A DNA stretch of 15,420 nt from a virus (IMGVR_UViG_2547132271_000004), one strand, 5' to 3'. Shown: positions 3,696 through 15,420, numbered from the stretch's first letter. A program made the numbers and translations. Notes: a model not told the origin generated them from the letters alone.

Positions 3696-3790
3696 AATTT
3701 GCTCCTGCCATAACGTGAAGAAGCAATGACCTGGCGGTCTGTGACTTCCCTACGCTGGCATTATCCAGATCAGGTGATACGGGTATTTCT
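3696..3790 (-). promoter_or_regulatory. thiM leader with the 3' portion of the TPP (thi-box) riboswitch and expression platform; the 5' half of the aptamer appears to be missing
   Basis: Minus-strand sequence AGAAAUACCCGUAUCACCUGAUCUGGAUAAUGCCAGCGUAGGGAAGUCAC followed by the SD and AUG matches the E. coli thiM thi-box as recalled. Upstream of it (plus 3791 onward) the sequence becomes AT-rich and unrelated to the expected P2/P3 and CUGAGA segment. Confidence 0.7.
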
Positions 3791-3856
3791 TACTAATTCC
3801 TGTTACTAGTTGATAATAAATAAGTTTTTAAGAATGCATAAATTAAAAACCTCAAA

Positions 3857-3880
3857 ACTGACCACACAACTGACCACACA
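3857..3880. repeat. Perfect tandem duplication of the 12-mer ACTGACCACACA
   Basis: Read directly: ACTGACCACACA at 3857-3868 and again at 3869-3880, immediately upstream of a CGAACAA-rich stretch. Confidence 0.9.
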
Positions 3881-4260
3881 TTTCGTTGAAGCTCTACGAA
3901 CAACGACGAACAATAACAAACAAAAGGGAAATTTGCTGGGGGTTTTGCGTAACCGTTATCATTTTCCGGCTATCCGTCATGAAGCTGGTGGATGATCTGC
4001 GTGGTGATTTCCACCATTCAGAGCAGGGGCGGTCATCATGACCATGCCATAACAAAAACCCCATATTCGTGGGTTTTCTGTGTTGTGGCTATTCTGCCGT
4101 TGCCGTGCTGGTGGATATTTCCGGTATGTGGCTCACCATATCGGCATCAGGCCCACCAGCGTGAAGCGTTTTTCATTTTTCGCGGGTATAAAAAATCGAT
4201 GGGGCTGGCAGTCCGGAAGACGTCAGGGTACAGAGATTTGACCCGCCCCTCCCTGTGCAT

Positions 4261-4468
4261 GAGCACAATAAGTAACCGAAGGCGGAATTCCGCCCTCGGT
4301 GCTCACATATGAGAAACGATATTTCTTACACCGATACCCTTTATTTGGGTATCGCGAGTAAGCCCCAAAATCTGGGTGTTACTCTTACTACCCAAACTAC
4401 GGGTAGTTTCATAGTCGAGTTGCAGATCTGCAACTCGCCACCAGTTGCTAAGTGCATTTTTGCACTTT
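4261..4468. other. Cluster of five consecutive, sequence-distinct stem-loops in non-coding DNA downstream of the packaging operon
   Basis: Inverted repeats read directly: CCGAAGGCGG/CCGCCCTCGG around a GAATTC centre (4277-4300); CGATACCC-N7-GGGTATCG (4332-4354); ACTACCC-N7-GGGTAGT (4387-4407); perfect palindrome CGAGTTGCAGATCTGCAACTCG (4416-4437); AAGTGCA-TTTTT-TGCACTT (4450-4468). Confidence 0.6.
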
Positions 4469-4484
4469 CGGTAATATCAACCAG

Positions 4485-4775
4485 TTACCGCCGTAAGTGC
4501 TCCGGCTTCCTCCACTGGTAAGTATTTTTCGCGCTCTCCCTCCGTTGTTGAGAACGGCGACGGTATGCCAGCAACTCAAGAACTCTGGTTCGTATGTTGC
4601 GCATATCCACGCCGTTAAGCTCAATACCGTCACGGCGCATTACCTCAGCCACCACACGCGCGTAATTTTCGGCTATCACGCTGTCCGGCTGTGTAGCCTG
4701 TTCGTCAGGCTGCTGACTGATTCCGGTAATGCGGCGAATTATTTTTAGTAGATCAGTTTCAGTCATTCTCGTCAT
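4485..4775 (-). CDS. Hypothetical small basic protein, translationally coupled to TerL
   Basis: 96-aa ORF whose ATG overlaps the TerL stop (ATGA). The C-terminus is Arg-rich. No family recognised. Confidence 0.5.
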   Translation of the reverse strand: MTRMTETDLLKIIRRITGISQQPDEQATQPDSVIAENYARVVAEVMRRDGIELNGVDMRNIRTRVLELLAYRRRSQQRRESAKNTYQWRKPEHLRR

Positions 4776-6433
4776 ACCCCATCAAATGCCGCAAGTCGCT
4801 CTTTCTGGCTGTCGCTCATATCAAATGCAAATTCCTCATGCTCAGCCTGGAATGTGCCAAACGCCATCAGCGCCGCAACGCTCGGGTCTATCTTATTGGA
4901 TGATTTTTTCTTGTTCGGCTTGATATTGGCGTTCGCGTCACTCTGCATCACAACATTACTCATTGACCAGGCCAGCACCGGATCACCACGATGAACAATC
5001 ACCTTCCGGTTAACAAAAACTTCGAACGATTTCGCCGCCGGACTAAAACGAAGGTACGTTTGCGGGAACGGCTCCACCTCAAATCCCGCTCCCTGTAGCT
5101 GCGTCCTCAGGTGCGTGGCGTTCCATGTATCGAAACCCACCAGCCTGATATTGAAATTCTCTGCATCCGCCATGATGTCATCACGGATACGGTCATAATC
5201 AATGCAGTCACCCGGTGTTGTGCGTATCCAGCCCGCCTTTGCCCACTGGCGATAGATGGCGCGGTTTTTATTGGCAGGGTTCTGTAGCTGAAATTCCGGT
5301 AGATAGTGACGTGAAACCAGCATAATCTTTTTACCGACCGGAAAGGCATAGCACACGCTGGAAATATCGCTGGTTGATGATAAGTCCAGCCCCGCATAGC
5401 ACTCCTGCCCGTATAAATCCGCCTCAGCGAACGTTCCGGCGCACTCCGCCCATGCACCGTTACCCATCCACGGCGTAGCCCCCTGACACCAGATATTGAA
5501 TCGCTTGGTGAGCATTTCCACCCACTGCGACGGAATACCCCGCGCTTTCTGGATGGTTGAGGCAAGTTTTTCACGATCGACGGAAACATCGATATTGGGA
5601 TTCGCCTTTATCCACATCGCCGGATCGTCAACCTCGCTTTCATCATCCAGCTCGTAAATCAGTACGAACATGGATTCGTTCACCTCTTCACCATCCAGTA
5701 TCTGGCAGCAATAGTCGTAGTGTTGTTTACAGGCTGAAACAACGTTGCTCCCCGATGTGGTGATGGCAAATAACAGCCCCTCCGGACGCGCCCCCATCCC
5801 CAGTTCAAGTGCGGAATAAACCCCGTTGTCTGGGTGCAGGTGATATTCATCCACAATGGCAAGACTCGGGTTTGTCCCCTCAATGGTTGCCGCTTTTGCT
5901 GCCAGTGGCTTTAACAGGCTGTTGGTTTTCGGGTGTATCACCTTGTGCGCCTGAATATTTACCCGCTTTCGTAACGGTCGGGATAAAAGGCACATCTGAC
6001 GCGCATCATCAAACACGATCCGCGCCTGATCACGACTCACGGCGGCGGTGTAAATATCCTGCTGCCCGTTTTCCATAACCAGAAACCAGTTAGCCAGGAT
6101 AGCGGCGACCGTGGATTTGGCATTTTTTCGCGGTACTTCAATGAATGCGCTGGTGTATTTGCGCCGTCCGGTGGCCTTAACCTTAAATCCCAGGATGCAG
6201 GCAAAGGCGAACTGCTGCCACGGCTCAAGTTCAATGGGGCTACCGCGCATTGCGCCTTTTACGTGCGGGCACACCCGGGAAAAGGCAATAAACCGCTCCA
6301 CGACCTCCGGATCGAACGTGTAAAGGGAGTTTTCAAGGTCAGAAAAATACCGTTTAACAGCCTGTTTCAGTCGTTTACAGGCCGTAATTTTGCCGTTTTT
6401 TACGCCTTCTGCGTACTCATGCCAGGCGGTCAA
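4772..6433 (-). CDS. terL: Terminase large subunit
   Basis: 553-aa ORF with an N-terminal ATPase region (Walker A-like VPRKNAKST) and a C-terminal nuclease-like region. It overlaps the TerS 3' end. Confidence 0.9.
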   Translation of the reverse strand: MTAWHEYAEGVKNGKITACKRLKQAVKRYFSDLENSLYTFDPEVVERFIAFSRVCPHVKGAMRGSPIELEPWQQFAFACILGFKVKATGRRKYTSAFIEVPRKNAKSTVAAILANWFLVMENGQQDIYTAAVSRDQARIVFDDARQMCLLSRPLRKRVNIQAHKVIHPKTNSLLKPLAAKAATIEGTNPSLAIVDEYHLHPDNGVYSALELGMGARPEGLLFAITTSGSNVVSACKQHYDYCCQILDGEEVNESMFVLIYELDDESEVDDPAMWIKANPNIDVSVDREKLASTIQKARGIPSQWVEMLTKRFNIWCQGATPWMGNGAWAECAGTFAEADLYGQECYAGLDLSSTSDISSVCYAFPVGKKIMLVSRHYLPEFQLQNPANKNRAIYRQWAKAGWIRTTPGDCIDYDRIRDDIMADAENFNIRLVGFDTWNATHLRTQLQGAGFEVEPFPQTYLRFSPAAKSFEVFVNRKVIVHRGDPVLAWSMSNVVMQSDANANIKPNKKKSSNKIDPSVAALMAFGTFQAEHEEFAFDMSDSQKERLAAFDGV

Positions 6434-6773
6434 GTTCGTCCTCTTCCTCTGTTTCCGGTGGATTTCTGCGACGGCTTACCGGGTCAAAACCCAGCAAAGA
6501 AGCCATTTTGATCATTATTCTTTCTGCGTCAGCCTTTGCGCTCAGTGCGGGGTTTCTGCTCTCGCTGCCCTGACTGTTAACAATGCTGAACCCGCGCGTC
6601 GCAAGGTCTTCGACGGCTTTGCGGTATATAGAGTAGTTAACGCAATACAGTTCCAGATTGCTCCAGTCGGCGGGGGTAAGGTCTTCCCGCCCGGAAAGCT
6701 GGCGCGATTTTTCCTTCCACTGCCTGACCGCGATTTCATCCAGGTAAGCGGGGGCTTTTGGTGGTCTTGCCAT
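6417..6773 (-). CDS. terS: Terminase small subunit (P27-family-like)
   Basis: Product MARPPKAPAYLDEIAVRQWKEKSRQL...LELYCVNYSIYRKA...LGFDPVSRRR resembles P27-type TerS. The ORF track extends to 6914, but that extension translates the structured candidate cos region, so the internal Met at 6773 is preferred. Confidence 0.75.
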   Translation of the reverse strand: MARPPKAPAYLDEIAVRQWKEKSRQLSGREDLTPADWSNLELYCVNYSIYRKAVEDLATRGFSIVNSQGSESRNPALSAKADAERIMIKMASLLGFDPVSRRRNPPETEEEDELDRLA

Positions 6774-7061
6774 GTTCTTTTTTCGCCCAATTATTTTCAA
6801 AAAAATTACCGTGCACAAAAATTTGAGGGGGCGGTCGGTGTCCGGCAGGGACGGTTTCGTCCTGAAAACCACCCCCACCCCCTCTGACGGCCTCACCAGC
6901 GATTGCGAAAACATTCCATGACCTCGCGGTCACGGTCGGTTAATCGCTTCGCTGTGGTGCGTTTTGTGCGCCCTGTCCTGTTGGCTTTGTGCTCTGTCTC
7001 CTGTGTCTTCCATGTGTCACGCTGCCTTATCAGTCCACGTATCAGCCTGGTTTGCTCCTGT
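6774..7061. other. Candidate cos / packaging recognition region between HNH and terS
   Basis: 288-bp gap in the position where HK97-like phages carry cos. Contains a nested imperfect palindrome (GAGGGGGCGG ... CCACCCCCTC enclosing GGACG-GTTT-CGTCC, about 6825-6884) and a T/G-skewed tract with recurring CTGTC and TGTGTC motifs (about 6956-7030). Confidence 0.4.
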
Positions 7062-7502
7062 TCAGTCATCATCGCCATACATCCAGTCGTTACGGTGTGC
7101 CGCCCGTTCTTCCTGCTCGCGATACATGCCCGCTTTACGGTTTGCTTTCGTGGCTGGATCTTCCCGTGTCGTCTTACGGTTGTGGCACGTCTGGCACAAT
7201 GCCTGGTGATTCCACTCAGGCCAGAAGAGAACATCACCGCCGCCATTGATGGGAATGATGTGATCCACCACAAGAGCTGGCGTATAAATCCCCTTAGCCA
7301 GACAACGCACGCATAACGGGTTTTTGCTCAGGTACAGGGCGCGGTATTTGTCCCACTGTCGGGAATACCCGCGCGCGCGGCGGTGTCCCCGTCTGGCATC
7401 CTCTGCACGCCATGCAGCCCGCCTGTGCTCTTCACACTTGCCGGACTTCACGCGCTTATTACAGCCAGGCTCAGTGCATCGCCTTAATGGTTGCCACGGC
7501 AT
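7062..7502 (-). CDS. HNH endonuclease (packaging-associated)
   Basis: 146-aa ORF with Cys-rich zinc-binding motifs and the HNH core (CTEPGC, CVRC, DHIIP, HQALCQTCHNRK). Its ATG overlaps the connector stop. Confidence 0.9.
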   Translation of the reverse strand: MPWQPLRRCTEPGCNKRVKSGKCEEHRRAAWRAEDARRGHRRARGYSRQWDKYRALYLSKNPLCVRCLAKGIYTPALVVDHIIPINGGGDVLFWPEWNHQALCQTCHNRKTTREDPATKANRKAGMYREQEERAAHRNDWMYGDDD

Positions 7503-7804
7503 CAGTACACCCCTACGTCACGATAAACTGACCAGAGCGCAGAAATAGCCATAGGCAGTTCCGAGTGCTCCACTGGTGAAACCGCTTCCCGGTTCTCGTA
7601 CAGGAAAGCGATGTACATCAGGCAACCAACACGCATTGCCGGGGTAAATTCCAGCCCGTCTTCAAAACGTTTCCCGATATGCTTCTGGCAGGCTTCCAGC
7701 GCCGCATCGGTATACATTTTCAGAAGTTCGCCTTCACCGGATAAATCATCATCAAGTCGAAGATGTGCCCTGACTTCATCAGGTGTAATTCTGGCTTCAC
7801 TCAT
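7502..7804 (-). CDS. Head-tail connector / adaptor protein (gp6-like)
   Basis: 100-aa product MSEARITPDEVRAHLRLDDD... resembles gp6-like head-tail connectors. Start chosen at the internal Met with RBS GGGAGAAAAG; the longer ORF-track N-terminus would overlap the portal. Confidence 0.65.
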   Translation of the reverse strand: MSEARITPDEVRAHLRLDDDLSGEGELLKMYTDAALEACQKHIGKRFEDGLEFTPAMRVGCLMYIAFLYENREAVSPVEHSELPMAISALWSVYRDVGVY

Positions 7805-9011
7805 CTTTTCTCCCTTTAATTTCCACAGTCTGTTTCCATGCCTGGCTGAACTCATCACCACCTTCACGCGGCGGCATACCCTCACGCTCACGGGCTTCGT
7901 TCGGATTCATGATCCCGTTCTTAATCCCTTTCTCATACGTGGCATAACGTTCGGTGGGTGTGGCGCGTAATAAATCGGCTGAATCAAACTCAACCAGATA
8001 ACGGGTACCAGGTACGGGAGAAGCCACCAGCAAAGCGGCCTTGATTTGCTGTTCGAAGTTCGCTAGCCACGGGCGCATTGTCATGGTCAGAAACGCGCGG
8101 CTTGCCTCGCTGAAATTGCTGTAGGTGCTGTTGCTGTATTCCTGCAGAAAAATAGGCGATACGTTGAACATGCGGGCGATGTCTTCAATGGAGAAGCGAC
8201 GGGAGGCCAGCCATTCCGCATCCTGGTTACTCATTCCCAGTTGCCTGTAATCCATGCCCCCTTCAAGGATTGGCGTTTTTCCGGCATTTTTCGCCCCCTT
8301 GTAGCGTTCCAGAGCATCCAATGCCTGTTTACCTTTCACGCCGTCCAGCCATTCGCCTGACGTGATAATCCCTGCCGCCATCATGCCATCTTTCATAATG
8401 CTGGCTCCGTGACGCTGTTGAGCAAGGCCAAGCCCCAGCGCCTCACGGCAAATCGTGACGGGGGAACGCCCCAGAAAGCCATCATCCGAGGCATAGCGGA
8501 GATGCAAAACTTCTTCCTGTAAATACGTGCGCACCGTTCCTGTACAGGGTTCGGTGATGGTATAGCGGTATTTGTGTGCGCCTGTGCGTTCCGGTACAAC
8601 ACACCCCGGCGCATAAGGATGAAGTGATTTTGGCTGCCCGTCCTGCCCCCACTCAATAACCGCATAGGCGTTACCGTTCAGCAGGCAGTGACGCATCATT
8701 GTGCGTTTAAACTGGTAAGGTGTCTGGCACGAATTAGGCTGCTCATTCAGCAGAATATCTACCGGGTGACTGTCCAGCCATTCCCGCGCCTCCCTGCCCT
8801 TGTCATTACGTACCAGATACAGATAACACGGCATCGTGGCCACCGCCTCAGCGATGACAGAAACCGCATTCATCACTGCAGGCAATGATTCAGCCGTCCC
8901 GGCAGAAACATATTCTCCGGATCCGGTATTCGGTACGCCGGACAGCGCCAGAAAATCATCAATGGACAGGTTACGCTGCTCGCTTTTTTTACGACTAAAA
9001 GGCCACCACAT
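7797..9011 (-). CDS. Portal protein (HK97 family)
   Basis: About 404 aa from the internal Met (MWWPFSRKK...), which directly follows the protease stop. HK97-type portal signatures seen (GKTPILEGGMDYRQLG, FNVSPIFL). Confidence 0.85.
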   Translation of the reverse strand: MWWPFSRKKSEQRNLSIDDFLALSGVPNTGSGEYVSAGTAESLPAVMNAVSVIAEAVATMPCYLYLVRNDKGREAREWLDSHPVDILLNEQPNSCQTPYQFKRTMMRHCLLNGNAYAVIEWGQDGQPKSLHPYAPGCVVPERTGAHKYRYTITEPCTGTVRTYLQEEVLHLRYASDDGFLGRSPVTICREALGLGLAQQRHGASIMKDGMMAAGIITSGEWLDGVKGKQALDALERYKGAKNAGKTPILEGGMDYRQLGMSNQDAEWLASRRFSIEDIARMFNVSPIFLQEYSNSTYSNFSEASRAFLTMTMRPWLANFEQQIKAALLVASPVPGTRYLVEFDSADLLRATPTERYATYEKGIKNGIMNPNEAREREGMPPREGGDEFSQAWKQTVEIKGRKDE

Positions 9012-9012
9012 A

Positions 9013-9573
9013 TCACAACCCCGCCAGCTCAGACCAGCGATGACGATTATTTCCTGTCGGACGTAATTCAGGGTGCTGTGCAAACAACGAACGGTGGGCA
9101 ATCTCCACGCCAGATTCTGGATAAGCAGGCATCGACGTTATTGTGATTTCACGGAGTTCAGCGGCGGTTACGGTACGCAGATACGGTTTTTGCGCGATAC
9201 TCCACTCCTCGCATAATGCGCGAAAACCAAAGCTCATTCCTGTAATGTCGCCACGCTCCACCAGCGTAAGCACATCTTTTCCAAGCTGGGTATCCGGCGG
9301 TGTCAGTTCAAAACGTAACCCGGTGTTATCCTCAGTCAGTACCAGAGTGCCGGATTTGGTGCGCCCCAGCAGTTGGGTATAGTCATGCTCATACAGGCAG
9401 CGCACATCATTACCCGTCGCCAGATAGTCAGCAAAAGCCCCCGGCGTGAACTGTTCGCGGAATTCGTCCCAGATAATTTCTGAAAGGCTGTTCCAGCGAA
9501 CGGCATACCCCACCAGCTTTTTATTGCTGGCGGTCAGTTCAGATGTGCGGATTTCAAAATCGGTGTTTTTCAT
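9013..9573 (-). CDS. Prohead maturation protease (HK97 family)
   Basis: 186-aa ORF with HK97 protease-like segments (YEHDYTQLLGRT, GMSFGF, ITSMPAYPESG). Confidence 0.85.
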   Translation of the reverse strand: MKNTDFEIRTSELTASNKKLVGYAVRWNSLSEIIWDEFREQFTPGAFADYLATGNDVRCLYEHDYTQLLGRTKSGTLVLTEDNTGLRFELTPPDTQLGKDVLTLVERGDITGMSFGFRALCEEWSIAQKPYLRTVTAAELREITITSMPAYPESGVEIAHRSLFAQHPELRPTGNNRHRWSELAGL

Positions 9574-9593
9574 CGGTGTACTCCATAAAGCTG

Positions 9594-9614
9594 AAAAAGG
9601 AGGCCGCAGCCTCC
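9594..9614 (-). terminator. Intrinsic terminator/attenuator between the capsid and protease genes
   Basis: On the minus strand: GGAGGC-UGCG-GCCUCC hairpin followed by UUUUU (plus-strand AAAAA GGAGGC CGCA GCCTCC), lying between the capsid stop (9628) and protease start (9573). Confidence 0.55.
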
Positions 9615-9627
9615 TCCTTACTCATGA

Positions 9628-10797
9628 CTAGCCAGCTTTCATTTCCAGAATTTTGATGGCGTTTGAATCCACCACACCACCGCCCAGATATTTATCCGTG
9701 TGGACCTTGTAGAATCCGGGTTCAGTAATGTTGTCCGGTCGGGTGCGAATCCCTGTTACATGATCAACGATGAAATAACCACGACTGAAATCGCCAACCG
9801 CTAGCGGTGCTTTTCCTGCGCCGATGTCCGGCATGGACTCCAGGCAGTAAACAGGACGACCAAGCAACATATCCGGCGCACCTTCTTTAAGGCTGTCGCG
9901 CCAGATATAATCGCCGTTCTCATTTTTCAGCTTCTGTAGTGTCCCTGCCGTGCCCGAGTTCATCACCCAGACGGCATTTTTGCGGTATTTCGCTTTCAGC
10001 TTGTAGAGAATGTCGATCAGTTCGTCCGCTGTAATGGCGGTTCCACTTGCCGCTACTATTTTTTCAATGGTGCCAAAAGCGCGGGTTTTGTCACTGGTCG
10101 CCGCACGGGTGTAAGCCATGAAGCCTTTCGGCTTGCCGTTACCGTCGCCATTAACAAAATCATCCTCTTCGGTGCTGGCGAACGTGTCGGCAATTTCGGA
10201 GGATAACCAGCCCAGAATATCCACCTCTGAAAAATCCAGGATTTCCTGCGTGGTTTTCGGGTAGGCGTAGATCGGATTCAACTTGATGGTTACGCGTTCA
10301 ATTTTCGGGGTGTTGGTTTCACTGCGTGCGCTGCCTTCTGTGCCTCGTCCTACAGTTGCGCCGCCAGTGGAAACCAGTTTCTGAAACTCATTTGATTTTG
10401 CGGTCTTCACGGTCGCGATCACGCGCATAACACTGTCATCCTGTAGCTGGCGCATGACTTCGCGATCAAGCTCAGGAATTACGGTATATCCGCCATCCCT
10501 GCCGCTGTCAGTGCTGGTGGACAGTGATCGCACATCTCCGGTTACGATGTAGTTACGCAATTCATCAGATGATAATTTCTGGATGCCCGTTCCTGGCTTG
10601 CTGCGTTCTTCATCAGCCACAGACTCGAGGCGGGAAATTTCTGTGTCGAGGGCATCAGCTTTTGCACGCAGTTCATCAAACTGTTTGCCTTCTTCAGCGT
10701 TCAGACTACGGTTTTCACTGTCGGCTTTTTCCAGCAGGGATCGCATCTGGTTTTTCAGGGCGTTTTTTTGCTGGCGGAGTTCGATTAATTTCTTCAT
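9628..10797 (-). CDS. Major capsid protein (HK97 fold) with N-terminal coiled-coil delta/scaffold domain
   Basis: 389-aa ORF. The first ~100 aa are a charged coiled-coil (LRQQKNALKNQMRSLLEKADSE...), followed by an HK97-like capsid core. Confidence 0.9.
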   Translation of the reverse strand: MKKLIELRQQKNALKNQMRSLLEKADSENRSLNAEEGKQFDELRAKADALDTEISRLESVADEERSKPGTGIQKLSSDELRNYIVTGDVRSLSTSTDSGRDGGYTVIPELDREVMRQLQDDSVMRVIATVKTAKSNEFQKLVSTGGATVGRGTEGSARSETNTPKIERVTIKLNPIYAYPKTTQEILDFSEVDILGWLSSEIADTFASTEEDDFVNGDGNGKPKGFMAYTRAATSDKTRAFGTIEKIVAASGTAITADELIDILYKLKAKYRKNAVWVMNSGTAGTLQKLKNENGDYIWRDSLKEGAPDMLLGRPVYCLESMPDIGAGKAPLAVGDFSRGYFIVDHVTGIRTRPDNITEPGFYKVHTDKYLGGGVVDSNAIKILEMKAG

Positions 10798-11083
10798 GAA
10801 GGTTTTCTCGTATTGGTTAAGATTCAGGACGTGAAACCAACACGGGGGGAGCGCCGCCCGACACTCTCGGCATCTCGCAGATCAACCCGGCATCGCGCAG
10901 GGGGTCAGGCGGCATTGTGGCGGCTCACGTCTGAGTGCCACGCTCCAACATATACATAAAAATCAGTATGTAAACACCTGTCAGTCAGACCGAACAACCA
11001 CGAAAGAACACGAACAAATAATTTACAAAAGAAGTAAACCATGGCCTATTATTGCTGTCTCTGACTACAACAAAGGACGCATC
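10798..11083. promoter_or_regulatory. Divergent control region between the capsid operon (minus) and the plus-strand cargo gene
   Basis: 286-bp gap with a GC-rich segment (10840-10940), an inverted repeat TACATA-N8-TATGTA (10953-10972), CGAACAA repeats (10991-11017), and a weak sigma70-like TTTACA ... TATTAT (11022-11052) upstream of the 11084 ATG. Confidence 0.4.
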
Positions 11084-11590
11084 ATGAATTTAAGCGCAAT
11101 GGTATACCCTGATACTTTCATAATTAATGGCGAATCATTCAGAGGTAAAAGAAACGCAAAAGAAAACAAGGTATTAATTCCATATACAAATGAACCGGAA
11201 GTAACTATTGGTCAACACATTATCCAGCGTGTCGGTAAAAACGAGATAAATCTAAAAATTATAGATATGAAGTTGCTTCCCAATGTAACCCGCAGACAGG
11301 GAACCAATCATCAAAATATGTTGACTCTCTATATTGAAAATATCACGGGAAATGAACATATGACGCCAACTAAAAGTAATACATTTAACATTGGTTCAAT
11401 TAGTGGTGATCAAGTGCAGATAGGTGAGCATAACCATATGCTGGTAAACATCAGCATCACTGAACTGGTTGAAAAAGTCGCTAAATCGGGGGATGTACAA
11501 GCCAAATCAGTATTAAAGCAGTTACTGGAAAACAGTACCGTTGCCAGCATTGTTGGGGCTGGCGCAAGTGCCCTAATAGGCTTACTGTAA
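11084..11590 (+). CDS. Hypothetical AT-rich cargo protein with C-terminal hydrophobic Gly/Ala-rich segment; function unknown
   Basis: 168-aa ORF with RBS AGGA before the ATG and its own terminator. It is the only plus-strand gene in the island and is visibly AT-rich relative to flanking genes (not computed). C-terminus STVASIVGAGASALIGLL is hydrophobic. No family recognised. Confidence 0.7.
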   Translation: MNLSAMVYPDTFIINGESFRGKRNAKENKVLIPYTNEPEVTIGQHIIQRVGKNEINLKIIDMKLLPNVTRRQGTNHQNMLTLYIENITGNEHMTPTKSNTFNIGSISGDQVQIGEHNHMLVNISITELVEKVAKSGDVQAKSVLKQLLENSTVASIVGAGASALIGLL

Positions 11591-11627
11591 AAAAATGGCC
11601 TGGATTTTACCAGGCCTTTATTATTTT
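11591..11627. terminator. Bidirectional intrinsic terminator
   Basis: AAAAA-T-GGCCTGG-ATTTTA-CCAGGCC-TTTATTATTTT; a GC stem flanked by an A-run and a T-run, placed between the convergent 11084-11590 (+) and 11626-11922 (-) genes. Confidence 0.7.
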
Positions 11628-11922
11628 ACCGTTTCACGGGATCTCGCATTCTGCGCCTTATTTTCCACAGATATTCGATCATCGCTTCCACCTGCTCACG
11701 GTTGGTTGCGAAAATTTCCCCGGTCAGTGAGCTACGCAGAAAATCATGATGATCCACAACAAACAACGCATCGGAAGAAAGCAGACGGCGATATTTTTTT
11801 GCTGTCATGGTTTCCAGATCATCAAAATCATGAAACTTTTTATGTTGCTGGACTTCTTCAAATGTCACTGGAATGTCCCCTCTGTTGTCGCTAAAACGGT
11901 ATGTTGTCCCCGTACGGATCAT
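11626..11922 (-). CDS. Hypothetical protein
   Basis: 98-aa ORF ending at the bidirectional terminator. It overlaps the SSB 3' end by 32 nt, so the real start may be internal. No family recognised. Confidence 0.45.
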   Translation of the reverse strand: MIRTGTTYRFSDNRGDIPVTFEEVQQHKKFHDFDDLETMTAKKYRRLLSSDALFVVDHHDFLRSSLTGEIFATNREQVEAMIEYLWKIRRRMRDPVKR

Positions 11923-12316
11923 CGTGCTGACCCGTCTGCTGTTTTGCCCTGTTCAGTGCGTCAGTGGCCTGCCCCTGCTGGCCTTTTTTGCCGCCCGGTC
12001 GCGCTGTTCGCGCACTGATCACGCTGTCTGCGATAACCTGCCAGCCCTGCCGCGTTTCGCCGTTCTGGCCTGTCCACTGGCTTACCTGCATGTTACCCGC
12101 CACGCTCACCAGTTCGCCTTTGTGGTGTTTTGCCAGTGCGTCGGCCTGTCTGCCAAACGCCAGGACGGATAACCACATCATCGCCGTTCCGTCATCTGCC
12201 TGGCTGCACGGAAGGGGGACCGCCATACTAGCCATCGTCATTTGTGTACCCTTGCTGGTGGTCTTTAACTGCGGGTCAGCCACCAGCCGCCCGTAAGCCG
12301 CTATCTGTGCTGTCAT
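11891..12316 (-). CDS. Single-stranded DNA-binding protein (SSB-like OB fold) with SSB-type C-terminal tip
   Basis: 141-aa product aligns by eye to the E. coli SSB OB core (MWLSVLAFGRQADALAKHHKGELVSVAGNMQVSQWTGQNGETRQ vs [44 protein letters not shown]). It has a Gly/Gln-rich linker and ends DDPYGDNIPF, like the host SSB tip DDDIPF. Confidence 0.75.
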   Translation of the reverse strand: MTAQIAAYGRLVADPQLKTTSKGTQMTMASMAVPLPCSQADDGTAMMWLSVLAFGRQADALAKHHKGELVSVAGNMQVSQWTGQNGETRQGWQVIADSVISARTARPGGKKGQQGQATDALNRAKQQTGQHDDPYGDNIPF

Positions 12317-12558
12317 GCTGTCTGCTCTCCGGTTTTAACGTTGATGGTTGTCACCTGTTCCGCTTCGGCAATCTCCCGTTCTGTCAGCGTGGCAAAGTTT
12401 GCAGCTGCCGTTGTCATGAATGCGCTAATCAGTTCGGGAAGTGCTTTCGCATATCCTTCCCCGGCGTTGCGGTCGATGATTTTTATCGACACCCTTAACC
12501 AGTGTTCCGTCAAATCAAGGGCGTGCGATTGTGATTTTTTTGTGTGCTTCGCTGTCAT
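12313..12558 (-). CDS. Hypothetical small protein adjacent to the origin
   Basis: 81-aa ORF whose stop overlaps the SSB start (ATGA). No family recognised. Confidence 0.45.
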   Translation of the reverse strand: MTAKHTKKSQSHALDLTEHWLRVSIKIIDRNAGEGYAKALPELISAFMTTAAANFATLTEREIAEAEQVTTINVKTGEQTA

Positions 12559-12603
12559 AGGCTTTATCTCACAGCAGTAAATTAAAATTTTTGCGTTTTA
12601 ACC

Positions 12604-12832
12604 CTTCACCTGTTCACCTTTTGATATTTTCCATTTAAATTCATACTGTTAAGGGGTGAACAGTTTCACAAAAACTATTCACCAACTGTTCACCACTGTT
12701 CACCCTTGAAGCTCAATAAACAACCAAAAAGGTGAACAGTGAATAGTTTGGTGAACAGTTCATAAATAACTGTTCACCCTATAATATACTGATATAAAAG
12801 ATAATTATGACAGGGTGAACAGTGGTGAACAG
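12604..12832. repeat. Iteron-type replication origin: about nine copies of GGTGAACAG in both orientations flanking an AT-rich segment
   Basis: GGTGAACAG or its complement CTGTTCACC read at about 12611, 12655, 12686, 12696, 12731, 12750, 12770, 12814 and 12824. AT-rich spacer ATAATATACTGATATAAAAGATAATTATGA at 12781-12812. It sits immediately 3' of the primase-helicase gene. Confidence 0.7.
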
Positions 12833-12845
12833 TTATTCAATAAGT

Positions 12846-14663
12846 TTAATTTTTGCTATCGTCATTAGTGACCGATACACATGATGGCATCCAGTCTTCT
12901 GATTCCTCCGTCAGTGTCACGTTTGAACGAAAACCGTGCTTCGTTTTCCGTTTCATATACTCCCTGCCATATTCCGCCATTGCCCCCGGCATATCTTTAC
13001 CGAAGCGCGTCAGTGTTACAGGTTTACCAAACCCATGTGCCCTCATATAAGCCAGATAGGCATGATAGAGATACCTGCGTGGGCTGAATGGCACAATTTC
13101 AGCATTACCCACTAACAGGCCATCACACATTACCGACGCCATGAGATAGCCGCAGAAGTCCACCAGCGAATCCCCCTCTCGCTTTATCGCCAGTGCTTCT
13201 TCAGATTTCTGCTGCTCATATAACAGGCGTCTGGCTTCGTCCTGGTCAGCAAACCGTGTAAGCAGATGGCGAATCACTACCGCCAGCTCACCTTCTATTT
13301 TTTCCGCCAGCATTGGATCGCGTTCGTTCTCCGGTACAACTTCCGAAAAATTGAATATCACCCGACGACGTGAGATCCCCCCGCTGCGGTCACTGAATGA
13401 CATGGCGTTATTGTTAACCGCCAGCACTACTGCCGGAATACGCGTTGAGTAGGGGGCTTTGTGTTTCGGGTCAATTGCCACCTTGTCACCGCCTGTAATA
13501 GCCTTAATCCCTGCCCCATCACCAGCGTAGCGGGTCATATCCGGCATGATAATCAGCGAAAAGCCAACCACTAACGCGCGTTCCCTTGCATCTTCCAGCG
13601 CCTTCATGCTTGCCGATACTGTGTTGGCCTTACCCGCCAGCATGGTGCAAATCTCCGCCATCACGCTTTTACCACTTCCCCCTGGACCTGTTACCTCAAT
13701 GAATAACTGCCAGTCGTACCGGTTCGCCAGCACCATGAATAATGCAGCCAGTACGCGATCCGCCTTGCGGTCATTCTCAGCCACCGAACGGCGTAACCAC
13801 TTCCAGAAATTCGGCGCATGTGTTGCCAGCGTTTCCCCCTCTGCTGGTGGGCTGAAAGGTAATTCACTGGCAATTAACAACCAGTCGTTTTTGTTATGCT
13901 CCCGAAAATTACCTGTTCTGGTATCAAATACCCCGTTACTGAATCCAATCAGGTTACGGGCTGTATTCCCCATTACAGGCAAACTTAACTTCATGGTATC
14001 GACCGCCGATTTAATGGCGTTCTGCGAATAGCTGATCTCCGCATCAATGAAAATCTGTGCCATAGCTCGCTGTAATTCTTTATCCTGTACTGGCTCCCAT
14101 ACAACGCCGTTGTAATGGTGAACAGTGTCAGAGTCAGCATGAATCGCCAGTTCACCGCCATAATGTGCCAGGAGAACTTCGCCGCGTTGACTTGCTCCCA
14201 TCTGGTTAAGCGCCAGTGATGAAGCGTTATCGTCTTTTACCCGCTCTTTTTTCTTTACAGGCAGTTCAACTACCTTTTTCTTTTCCGCCTGCTCTGCCCG
14301 TTCACGTTCCAGATATTCGCGCCAGTTCTCCCGTTTCTGGCTGTGCATTCCTTCAGGGTAATAATCAGCATCCCTGACACCTGCCACTGCCAGTTTCTGC
14401 CCGATGGTATTAACAAGCCCCGGACGCAATAACCCCGCCTGATAGAGACGCACGCGATAGCGTCCGTCCGGTACGATTTGCAGGTTGTCCAGTTCGGCAA
14501 GTTGTTGCTCTCCAAGCCAGACAGGTGGCACGTTATCGCCAGCCAGTCGCCCGTCCTGTTCCTGCCACTGTTTCGCATGTGCCCACGCATCACTACCCGC
14601 AAAAATGATGACTTCCGTCATTTTGTCACGCGGCTGGTGTTTTAAATTTGGCGCTTTTTTCAT
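12846..14663 (-). CDS. Primase-helicase / replication initiator (P4-alpha / D5-type C-terminal P-loop NTPase)
   Basis: About 605 aa from MKKAPNLK (ATGA overlap with the upstream gene; RBS GGAGAG). Walker A VTGPGGSGKS and Walker B-like LIIMPDM, with a D5_N/primase-C-like central region. Confidence 0.85.
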   Translation of the reverse strand: MKKAPNLKHQPRDKMTEVIIFAGSDAWAHAKQWQEQDGRLAGDNVPPVWLGEQQLAELDNLQIVPDGRYRVRLYQAGLLRPGLVNTIGQKLAVAGVRDADYYPEGMHSQKRENWREYLERERAEQAEKKKVVELPVKKKERVKDDNASSLALNQMGASQRGEVLLAHYGGELAIHADSDTVHHYNGVVWEPVQDKELQRAMAQIFIDAEISYSQNAIKSAVDTMKLSLPVMGNTARNLIGFSNGVFDTRTGNFREHNKNDWLLIASELPFSPPAEGETLATHAPNFWKWLRRSVAENDRKADRVLAALFMVLANRYDWQLFIEVTGPGGSGKSVMAEICTMLAGKANTVSASMKALEDARERALVVGFSLIIMPDMTRYAGDGAGIKAITGGDKVAIDPKHKAPYSTRIPAVVLAVNNNAMSFSDRSGGISRRRVIFNFSEVVPENERDPMLAEKIEGELAVVIRHLLTRFADQDEARRLLYEQQKSEEALAIKREGDSLVDFCGYLMASVMCDGLLVGNAEIVPFSPRRYLYHAYLAYMRAHGFGKPVTLTRFGKDMPGAMAEYGREYMKRKTKHGFRSNVTLTEESEDWMPSCVSVTNDDSKN

Positions 14664-14959
14664 TTCTGCTCTCTCCACGCGGCAATCATGTTTTTTAGTT
14701 CCTGTAGTTTTTTATCAACATCCATACATGACACATGGTTATTTCTGGAAAGCGGGATTTCCCGACTGAATCTGCTAATAAAGATCTCCACGTTCAGCGA
14801 ACTAAGAAATGAATAGCCATCACGGATAAAATACACACGGTCAAACATCAGTTCTTTTACCGTTACTCTGTTACCGTTCTTATCCAGATAAATAGCGCCG
14901 GGGATAATTTGGGGGTGTGCATAACCGCTGGCAGTCAAGCCAGATAAATACGTTCTCAT
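14660..14959 (-). CDS. Hypothetical protein (AT-rich cassette gene B)
   Basis: 99-aa ORF with RBS GGGGA upstream. Its stop overlaps the primase ATG. Visibly AT-rich. No family recognised. Confidence 0.55.
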   Translation of the reverse strand: MRTYLSGLTASGYAHPQIIPGAIYLDKNGNRVTVKELMFDRVYFIRDGYSFLSSLNVEIFISRFSREIPLSRNNHVSCMDVDKKLQELKNMIAAWREQK

Positions 14960-14965
14960 GATTAT

Positions 14966-15286
14966 TTATCCCCGATTTGAATCAGTATTCGCTTTCTTTA
15001 TAGCATTTAATGCATCTGTGGCATTTTCAATGGTGCACCGTAACGAAATATCAAAATGTCCAAGCATTGCCAGTAACAAACCGATATTACCCATATCAAT
15101 GCGCATGGCCTTTTCGTCATAGTCCTCATTTTCTGACGCATGCCACATCAGGCTACCAATTGACGCAACAGCCATTGATATATTGTCAGTAGCCCCATCC
15201 GCAGCGGAATAAATCTTTTTAGCAATATCATGCTCACAGTTAAAATGCGGATTAATCAGGTACTGGTAATTTGACATATCAGGCAT
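14966..15286 (-). CDS. Hypothetical protein (AT-rich cassette gene A)
   Basis: 106-aa ORF with RBS AGGGGG upstream, 6 bp from gene B. Visibly AT-rich with a sharp switch to GC-rich sequence at about 15287. No family recognised. Confidence 0.55.
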   Translation of the reverse strand: MPDMSNYQYLINPHFNCEHDIAKKIYSAADGATDNISMAVASIGSLMWHASENEDYDEKAMRIDMGNIGLLLAMLGHFDISLRCTIENATDALNAIKKANTDSNRG

Positions 15287-15420
15287 GGCACACCCCCTGA
15301 CGAATACGGGCGGCGAATACCATCACGCAGCCAGCCGGGGATTGCTGGCGTGCTTCCTGTTCGCTGGTGGCCACGATGTGAATCACGCGCGGTTGTGCGG
15401 TGCTCAGGGCGATAAAACGC
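15279..15420 (-). CDS. 3' end of an upstream GC-rich gene continuing beyond the window (product unknown)
   Basis: Minus-strand frame open from the window edge to TGA at 15281-15279, ending ...AARIRQGVCHA. The stop overlaps the start of gene A. Not in the ORF track because no start codon is in view. Confidence 0.4.
   Translation of the reverse strand, partial: RFIALSTAQPRVIHIVATSEQEARQQSPAGCVMVFAARIRQGVCHA

Follow-up and report, generated by a model that had tools for sequence, protein, structure and literature searches.

A probable capsid-forming phage-inducible chromosomal island in the thiM riboswitch of Escherichia coli

The 15,420-nucleotide stretch IMGVR_UViG_2547132271_000004 (hereafter the window) in all likelihood holds the greater part of a capsid-forming phage-inducible chromosomal island (cf-PICI) of Escherichia coli, 15.1 kb in length and inserted by a tyrosine integrase at a 14-bp site in the thiamine pyrophosphate (TPP) riboswitch of thiM. 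The cf-PICIs are a kind of element already known, first described in 2022–2023, and the present island is a further member of the family. A first-pass annotation of the window, made from the sequence alone, had read the region 4485–15420 as a capsid-forming satellite that carries its own replicon and takes only tails from a helper phage. The reading as a capsid-forming satellite is supported by the collinearity and homology found between the island and the cf-PICI EcCIEDL933, and the finding confirms that a reader of sequence only can recognise a cf-PICI.

Borders, gene content and classification of the island

Comparison of the filled site with the empty K-12 site gave an island length of 15,142 bp between the two 14-bp attachment (att) cores. 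The core ATACGGGTATTTCT was present in exact copies at positions 9078 and 24220 of locus L001 and in a single copy, inside the riboswitch, in the empty site of K-12, where thiM and rcnR are adjacent. Matches to positions 3700–15420 of the window that extended over 80% or more of the length were obtained in 52 complete E. coli genomes, the best with an identity of 99.8%; the strains CS5L and SMS-3-5 are examples of near-identical carriers. The left 3.7 kb of the window was occupied by the host region yegW–yegX–thiD–thiM, and the first-pass annotation was right in stating that the left side reaches host thiM. Its extent held the genes that it claimed, but the island starts at position 3777, about 700 bp further left.

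To the right, the island reaches about 3.5 kb past the edge of the window. In CS5L this part included first the rest of the Icd-like gene, a YlcI/YnfO gene and an open reading frame (ORF) of 57 aa, and then an AlpA-family regulator (Phage_AlpA, PF05930, E = 4.8e-16), a DUF6387 protein and a tyrosine integrase with the Pfam domains Arm-DNA-bind_3 and Phage_integrase, with host rcnR directly beyond. The extension, which had been proposed as a check, thus recovered the integrase, AlpA and both att sites, and tail or lysis genes past the right edge, which had been named as the mark of an ordinary prophage, were not among the genes found before rcnR. No tRNA genes were detected in the window. The 78-bp direct repeats situated just inside each island end (Table 1) are probably arm-type sites of the integrase, because the latter carries the Arm-DNA-bind_3 domain.

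The capsid, protease, portal, connector, HNH, TerS, TerL and single-stranded DNA-binding protein (SSB) genes listed in the first pass were all present and intact, matching their Pfam models essentially end to end (Table 1). Pseudogenisation of the structural genes, the other finding that would have spoken for a different reading, was not observed: the ORFs were of full length, and the ratio of nonsynonymous to synonymous substitution rates (dN/dS) of the capsid, protease, portal and TerL genes was 0.03–0.24 in comparison to two relatives. Also the predicted lack of tail, baseplate and lysis genes was borne out, as no ORF between attL and attR matched tail, baseplate, holin or lysin families in the Pfam, PHROGs and NCBIfam scans. 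The PICI-type module was represented by the tyrosine integrase, AlpA and a replication gene with an adjoining iteron origin. The best match of the capsid protein in the PDB was 9GYI (E = 7e-154, full length), which according to its depositors is the T=4 capsid of EcCIEDL933 (He et al., bioRxiv 10.1101/2025.02.11.637232).

EcCIEDL933 is the tested cf-PICI prototype, found in E. coli O157:H7 EDL933 (Alqurainy et al., bioRxiv 10.1101/2022.09.08.507074). The helper phages HK106 and HK446 induce it by way of alpA; it needs the helper for tails only, makes its own heads of 46 x 42 nm and packages itself exclusively. The two islands were similar in size (15.1 kb here and 15.4–15.5 kb in the prototype) and shared the succession of int, alpA, icd-like gene, DUF4222 gene, replication gene, iteron origin and SSB, followed by the capsid-to-TerL order and a trailing ORF. 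Also the conserved hnh–terS spacer was common to both. The protein identities of the packaging module were 57–93% (connector, capsid, portal and TerL), against a published range of 50–90%. The capsid-to-TerL order along the minus strand was seen as first described, but it is not unusual, being the published order of proteobacterial cf-PICIs: capsid, protease, portal, head connectors, hnh, terS, terL (Alqurainy et al., 10.1101/2022.09.08.507074).

The differences between the islands concerned separate modules. The present island lacks the head-closure gene that stands between portal and connector in EcCIEDL933. The replication proteins share only their first 143 residues (69% identical), beyond which their domains are unrelated, being D5_N/Pox_D5 in the present protein (12846–14678) and DUF927 in that of EcCIEDL933 (L005 14427–16559). 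The iterons are GGTGAACAG here and GCGGGTTAT at the same position in EcCIEDL933, the latter read by eye. The accessory gene is a 168-aa ORF here and PerC in EcCIEDL933, and the integration site is the thiM riboswitch instead of the phoQ–roxA interval, in which EcCIEDL933 was located in the EDL933 genome by distant blastn.

With SatelliteFinder, 969 cfPICIs have been detected, present in 13% of Enterobacteriaceae genomes and with a median size of 14 kb (de Sousa et al., NAR 2023, PMC10085698). The cfPICI core consists of 11 components: int, regulator, pri-rep, capsid, protease, portal, head-tail connector, head-tail adaptor, HNH, TerS and TerL. At least nine of the 11 must be colocalised, N-1 and N-2 sets being accepted and tail and holin genes forbidden (PMC10085698). 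In the present case ten of the 11 components were found by Pfam, PHROGs and NCBIfam in one att-bounded island of 15.1 kb, the missing one being the adaptor, which is not obligatory in the SatelliteFinder definition (PMC10085698). By the criteria of the cfPICI model the island would be a Type B variant, and such variants are often functional according to the authors of SatelliteFinder (PMC10085698).

Head-tail genes, related islands and alternative explanations

The island included one head-tail gene, the connector, compared with two in the prototype. In EcCIEDL933 a Phage_HCP head-closure gene, matching PF05521, is situated between the portal and connector genes, while in the present island the portal stop overlaps the connector start (7797–7804) and leaves no room for it. 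A tblastn search with two head-closure proteins did not find a homologue in the island, and none of its ORFs matched PF05521. The head-closure protein is the 'adaptor' of He et al. (bioRxiv 10.1101/2025.02.11.637232). A Phage_HCP adaptor is present in all three tested cf-PICIs (EcCIEDL933, EcCIGN02175 and KpCIDSM30104), where it was shown to contribute to tail specificity; in the prototype it is the adaptor–connector pair that sets which tails fit.

The scan of species-representative genomes identified 80 loci in Enterobacterales, Pasteurellaceae and Orbaceae. The order capsid–protease–portal–(head closure)–connector–HNH–TerS–TerL was kept in all 68 loci with a complete interval; these included five E. 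coli and phage-record loci, the other 63 being species representatives. In the Enterobacterales loci in which an integrase was found, it was located 6–9 kb upstream. The layout with one head-tail gene was present in six of the 63 species-representative loci, belonging to Leclercia, Pantoea, Erwinia, Serratia, Gilliamella and Xenorhabdus; the loci with this layout were L006 (CFS3292), L009, L017, L021, L024, L045 and L053. The connectors of the six were scattered over the neighbour-joining tree, in which sequences only some 100 aa long were used and branches are given without support values. The connector also abutted the portal in 16 of the 17 listed E. coli genomes with at least 80% identity to the capsid module of the window.

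Two of the related islands had parts almost identical to the present one. In the CFS3292 island (L006), situated at hpt, the connector, the HNH and TerS proteins and the small ORF product are identical to those here and the portal is 99.5% identical, and the head-closure gene is likewise missing. Its capsid protein is only 70% identical, its replication gene is of the DUF927 kind, and both its integrase and its site are different. The APEC17 island (L089) is 98% identical to the window in its capsid-to-portal DNA, but it possesses both head-tail genes, for head closure and connector, and is located within the terL of a prophage. As CFS3292 has the same layout, APEC17 has both genes and the layout recurs in six genera, the absence of the head-closure gene is not private to the present island. 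Together, the CFS3292 and APEC17 islands show that the modules for capsid, head-tail joining, replication and integration are exchanged as cassettes.

Certain details of these islands were noted separately. In the APEC17 sequence (NZ_CP178203.1) the island is flanked by terL fragments of an HK97-like prophage (4347–5090 and 20527–20968), and its integrase abuts the 5' terL fragment. In the comparison of the window with CFS3292 (9013–10797 against L006 10217–11971), the portal and protease had a protein identity of 99% and the capsid protein 70%, and a recombination break is therefore placed near the capsid/protease hairpin.

The capsid protein was also compared with a phage collection of 50,697 records. 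The nearest genome-sized tailed phages (SfI, SfII, SfIV and 118970_sal3) had capsid proteins at most 37% identical. Four phage records were closer, with 61–77% capsid identity. Three of these were 3.8–16.5 kb in length, being island-sized or fragments, and one of the three was the 'induced prophage' vB_KppS-Ant, of 16.5 kb; this reading does not extend to the fourth record, which is from Klebsiella and 106.5 kb long. The phages HK97, HK022 and HK106 have the same head families as the island, a protease with a delta-domain capsid protein, and HNH-assisted cos packaging. HK97-like phages differ from it in having tails, lysis genes, T=7 heads and a terminase-first order.

Some points weigh against reading the island as a cf-PICI that works like the prototype. 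The head-closure ('adaptor') gene is absent, although nearly all packaging genes of the prototype are essential for transfer, the exception in EcCIEDL933 being one small ORF. No helper is known for the island, and its capsid operon has as promoter only one weak consensus match. Its excision, replication, capsids and transfer we infer from the genes alone.

The absent gene is also what favours the explanation that the island is a cf-PICI no longer transmissible, in which a deletion of the head-closure gene left a replicating and capsid-making but non-infective and slowly decaying element. In the prototype, loss of head closure abolished transfer, and the head-tail pair sets tail specificity. 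This explanation is nevertheless considered improbable. At hpt, the connector, the HNH and TerS proteins and the small ORF recur unchanged in company with different capsid and replication genes, and they would therefore have spread after the loss of the head-closure gene. The one-gene layout recurs in the six of 63 loci from other genera, with the connectors on separate branches of the unsupported neighbour-joining tree; the remaining structural genes are intact, with dN/dS in the range given above; and the portal/connector junction retains the usual start/stop overlap.

That the element would be a defective prophage, from which tail and lysis genes have been deleted, is very unlikely, even though its head genes (HK97 type) come from phages and the RefSeq labels are those of phage genes. 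Such a remnant is contradicted by the clean att borders and the PICI-type int–alpA–replication module, by the conservation of the tail-less layout across many genera, by the low capsid identity to genome-sized tailed phages, and by a capsid-first order unlike that of the two tailed-prophage head modules in the examined loci, one lambda-like and one HK97-like. Over the 15,142 bp that separate the att cores, no tail, baseplate, fibre or lysis genes were found. A P4-like satellite or a classical PICI, remodelling the capsids of its helper, would account for the AlpA regulator, the Icd-like gene and the P4-alpha-type replication protein, but it is the least credible of the explanations, as capsid protein, portal, protease and TerL are all products of the island itself. 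The AlpA and alpha-like replication genes were present, but psu, delta and sid were not found: no Pfam match of the Psu, Sid or Delta kind was obtained, and no spare ORF is left for them. Furthermore, neither a portal nor a connector gene is allowed by the PICI model of SatelliteFinder, and both are in the island (PMC10085698).

If the island is a cf-PICI with only one head-tail gene, its lineage would either borrow a stopper from the helper or do without one. The expression 'takes only tails', used in the first-pass annotation, may then be too narrow for an island without head closure.

Packaging, replication and other features

The coordinates of the features are given in Table 1. Most neighbouring genes of the operon are joined by start/stop overlaps, as had been claimed; read from the coordinates, these are 1–17 nt in length: 4 nt between TerL and the next ORF, 17 nt between TerS and TerL and between the small ORF and HNH, 1 nt between connector and HNH, 8 nt between portal and connector, and 4 nt both between SSB and the ORF upstream and between the DUF4222 and primase genes.

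Table 1. Features of the window and of the island part within it, with protein identity to EcCIEDL933 where available. Strand is given in relation to the window.
Feature	Position	Strand	Evidence or remark	Identity to EcCIEDL933
thiM TPP riboswitch aptamer, retained 3' half	3729..3790	-	ends at integration point	
attL core ATACGGGTATTTCT, 14 bp	3777..3790	.	second copy (attR) 15,142 bp rightward, outside window	
Left-end region, no convincing gene	3791..4484	.	strong hairpin 4275-4300 (-) downstream of packaging operon	
78-bp direct repeat, holds tandem CTGACCACACA	3848..3923	+	partner adjoins integrase start; 94% identical; blastn of island ends	
ORF after terL, 96 aa	4485..4775	-	phrog_1561, E = 3e-52; conserved	73%
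Large terminase TerL	4772..6433	-	Pfam TerL_ATPase and TerL_nuclease	93%
Small terminase TerS, P27 family	6417..6773	-	Pfam Terminase_4, E = 1.6e-23; phrog_83	
Candidate cos / terminase recognition region	6774..6892	-	119-bp hnh-terS spacer	
61-aa ORF between hnh and terS	6893..7078	-	phrog_3173, E = 6e-27; EcCIEDL933 ORF at same position	
HNH endonuclease, packaging module	7062..7502	-	Pfam HNH; phrog_144, E = 3.6e-45	
Head-tail connector, HK97 gp6-like	7502..7804	-	Pfam Phage_connect_1; phrog_40 ('adaptor Ad1' in PHROGs); TIGR01560	57%
Portal protein	7797..9011	-	Pfam Phage_portal, E = 2e-92, model positions 1-321 of 321	81%
Prohead serine protease S78	9013..9573	-	Pfam Peptidase_S78, E = 6e-46	
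Hairpin with U run, between capsid and protease genes	9594..9619	-	11-bp stem, UGCG loop	
HK97-fold major capsid protein, N-terminal delta domain	9628..10797	-	Pfam Phage_capsid, E = 1.9e-71	64%
Promoter-like site upstream of capsid operon	10947..10974	-	TTTACA-16-TATGTT, consensus scan; weak	
Accessory 168-aa gene, opposite strand	11084..11590	+	AT-rich stretch 11001-11500, 36% GC	
Hairpin, terminator-like on both strands	11597..11616	.	just past accessory gene	
82-aa ORF	11626..11874	-	phrog_1957; CDS in RefSeq	
Single-stranded DNA-binding protein	11891..12316	-	Pfam SSB; phrog_44	
81-aa ORF	12313..12558	-	phrog_1231	
Iteron replication origin	12610..12832	.	nine GGTGAACAG in both orientations, AT-rich spacer	
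Replication initiator-helicase, D5 / P4-alpha type	12846..14678	-	Pfam D5_N, DUF5906, Pox_D5	
DUF4222 protein	14660..14959	-	Pfam; DUF4222 gene at same place in EcCIEDL933	
106-aa ORF	14966..15286	-	phrog_15327	
Icd-like cell-division inhibitor gene, cut by window end	15279..15420	-	RefSeq annotation of L001; NF033153	

The terminator-like hairpin after the capsid gene, already pointed out in the first pass, had a folding energy of -22.1 kcal/mol (z = -2.9). EcCIEDL933 has a different hairpin at the same capsid/protease position, as read by eye from its sequence. The hairpin could raise the output of capsid protein relative to the downstream genes.

The hnh–terS spacer is a candidate cos site. 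It contains a conserved block rich in G, GGGGTGGGGG..GGTTTTCAGGAC, and after it one rich in A/T, and the long invariant runs (GGGGTGGGGG..GGTTTTCAGGAC, then CTCAAATTTTT..GCACGG..ATTTTTT) were common to two other islands, whose capsid-module DNA is only 71–76% identical to the window. The record of vB_KppS-Ant, an induced relative, is linear and begins within the hnh–terS spacer, with about 70 nt missing there; as a map of cos, the ends of this record are suggestive only.

The claimed iteron origin was confirmed. The repeat GGTGAACAG occurs ten times in the window, nine of these within 12610–12832, against a chance expectation of 0.12 for the whole window, and the cluster is immediately 3' of the replication gene. 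The replication protein matched phrog_864 (E = 1e-192), while its match to TIGR01613 was below the cutoff of that model; RefSeq places its start at 14663. The gene had been named a primase-helicase, of which the helicase part stands as a P4-alpha/D5-type helicase-initiator; the primase catalytic domain as such was not shown. The variable C-terminal part of the protein may read the iterons, which would fit the differences of EcCIEDL933 both in the iterons and in the protein beyond residue 143.

The 168-aa accessory protein had 93 unnamed homologues, distributed in Enterobacterales, Pseudomonas, Shewanella and Xanthomonas, and no functional Pfam annotation. The gene was found upstream of the capsid gene also in six other cf-PICIs, and in Pseudomonas a homologue adjoins a P2-like tail module, beside a weak HEPN-domain gene. 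The possibility that it would be the missing head-closure gene was ruled out by this distribution. According to published work, defence genes are expected at this position in cf-PICIs. PADLOC did not give a defence match for any ORF lacking functional annotation, apart from a meaningless BrxA match (E = 0.008).

In the island's left end, two plus-strand ORFs within 3791–4484 had no family matches, and positions 4144–4445 matched that of the CFS3292 island with an identity of 92%. A candidate regulator motif, GAACAAC(C/G)ACGAA, was present in each of the att arms and again some 200 bp upstream of the capsid gene (window 3898–3910 and 10992–11004; L001 24109–24121), and similarly in EcCIEDL933, so that a single protein acting at the two places was considered. 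As a general feature it was not supported, being situated upstream of the capsid gene in only three of 22 loci, and the longest words shared between the int-proximal and capsid-upstream regions never rose above those of shuffled controls. In the left end of EcCIEDL933 (L005 5430–5845) the last gene is followed downstream by ATCA(A/G)C(C/A)AGTTACCGC in three to four copies at intervals, and every copy is similar to the 3' end of the gene. In the window there is a single copy (4476–4491), at the stop of the post-terL gene itself.

The life cycle proposed for the island follows that of EcCIEDL933 by homology, starting from the gene content, order, intactness, borders, origin repeats and homology observed here. 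A helper prophage would turn on alpA, the integrase would excise the island, and replication would start from the iterons with the island's own helicase-initiator and SSB. One leftward operon would then be expressed. The delta-domain capsid protein, the S78 protease and the portal would form a small HK97-fold shell, probably of T=4, which fits because the 15.1 kb of the island is close to the 15.5 kb of the prototype that a T=4 shell holds. HNH, TerS and TerL would cut at cos, probably in the hnh–terS spacer, and the 15 kb genome would be packaged. The gp6-like connector would cap the portal, and the filled head would join a tail made by the helper. The head-closure protein would be supplied by the helper, unless the tails used by this lineage can do without it. 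Induction, small capsids, cos packaging and tail theft are thus all predicted by analogy with the prototype.

The thiM riboswitch as attachment site

The intact aptamer of K-12 (L002 2337–2433) scored 71.2 bits with RF00059 and has the att core in its middle. In the window no RF00059 match came up to the gathering score of 54.3, and positions 3729–3811 scored 37.5 bits in a permissive search. This aptamer lacks the P3 arm, and its 5' half is replaced by island sequence; the original 5' half and everything upstream of the aptamer are now beside the integrase, 15 kb off. In island-free genomes the match to the window ends exactly at 3790, where RefSeq annotates the riboswitch. The filled junction was present in 76 of the 5,426 complete E. 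coli genomes (about 1.4%). Both thiM and thiD are still intact ORFs, and a consensus scan did not find a promoter directed toward thiM in the left end of the island. Integration appears to split the aptamer and to move the native promoter region of thiMD 15 kb away, which would have a regulatory consequence. No mention of the thiM site as attB was found in the published literature searched, which did not include the cf-PICI site tables in supplements.

Only in the lack of a head-closure gene and in its riboswitch site does the island go beyond the literature found, and the consequences of both we infer. It is possible, but only tentatively suggested, that cf-PICIs without an adaptor are a recurrent working variant, using a stopper of the helper or none, and that carriage at thiM uncouples thiMD from thiamine control. 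Should adaptor-less islands prove able to transfer, the rule of cf-PICIs stealing nothing but tails needs to be amended, and the helper range of such islands would, if this is true, depend on a borrowed neck protein. An att site within a riboswitch aptamer would be a natural rewiring of a vitamin salvage and biosynthesis operon by a mobile element.

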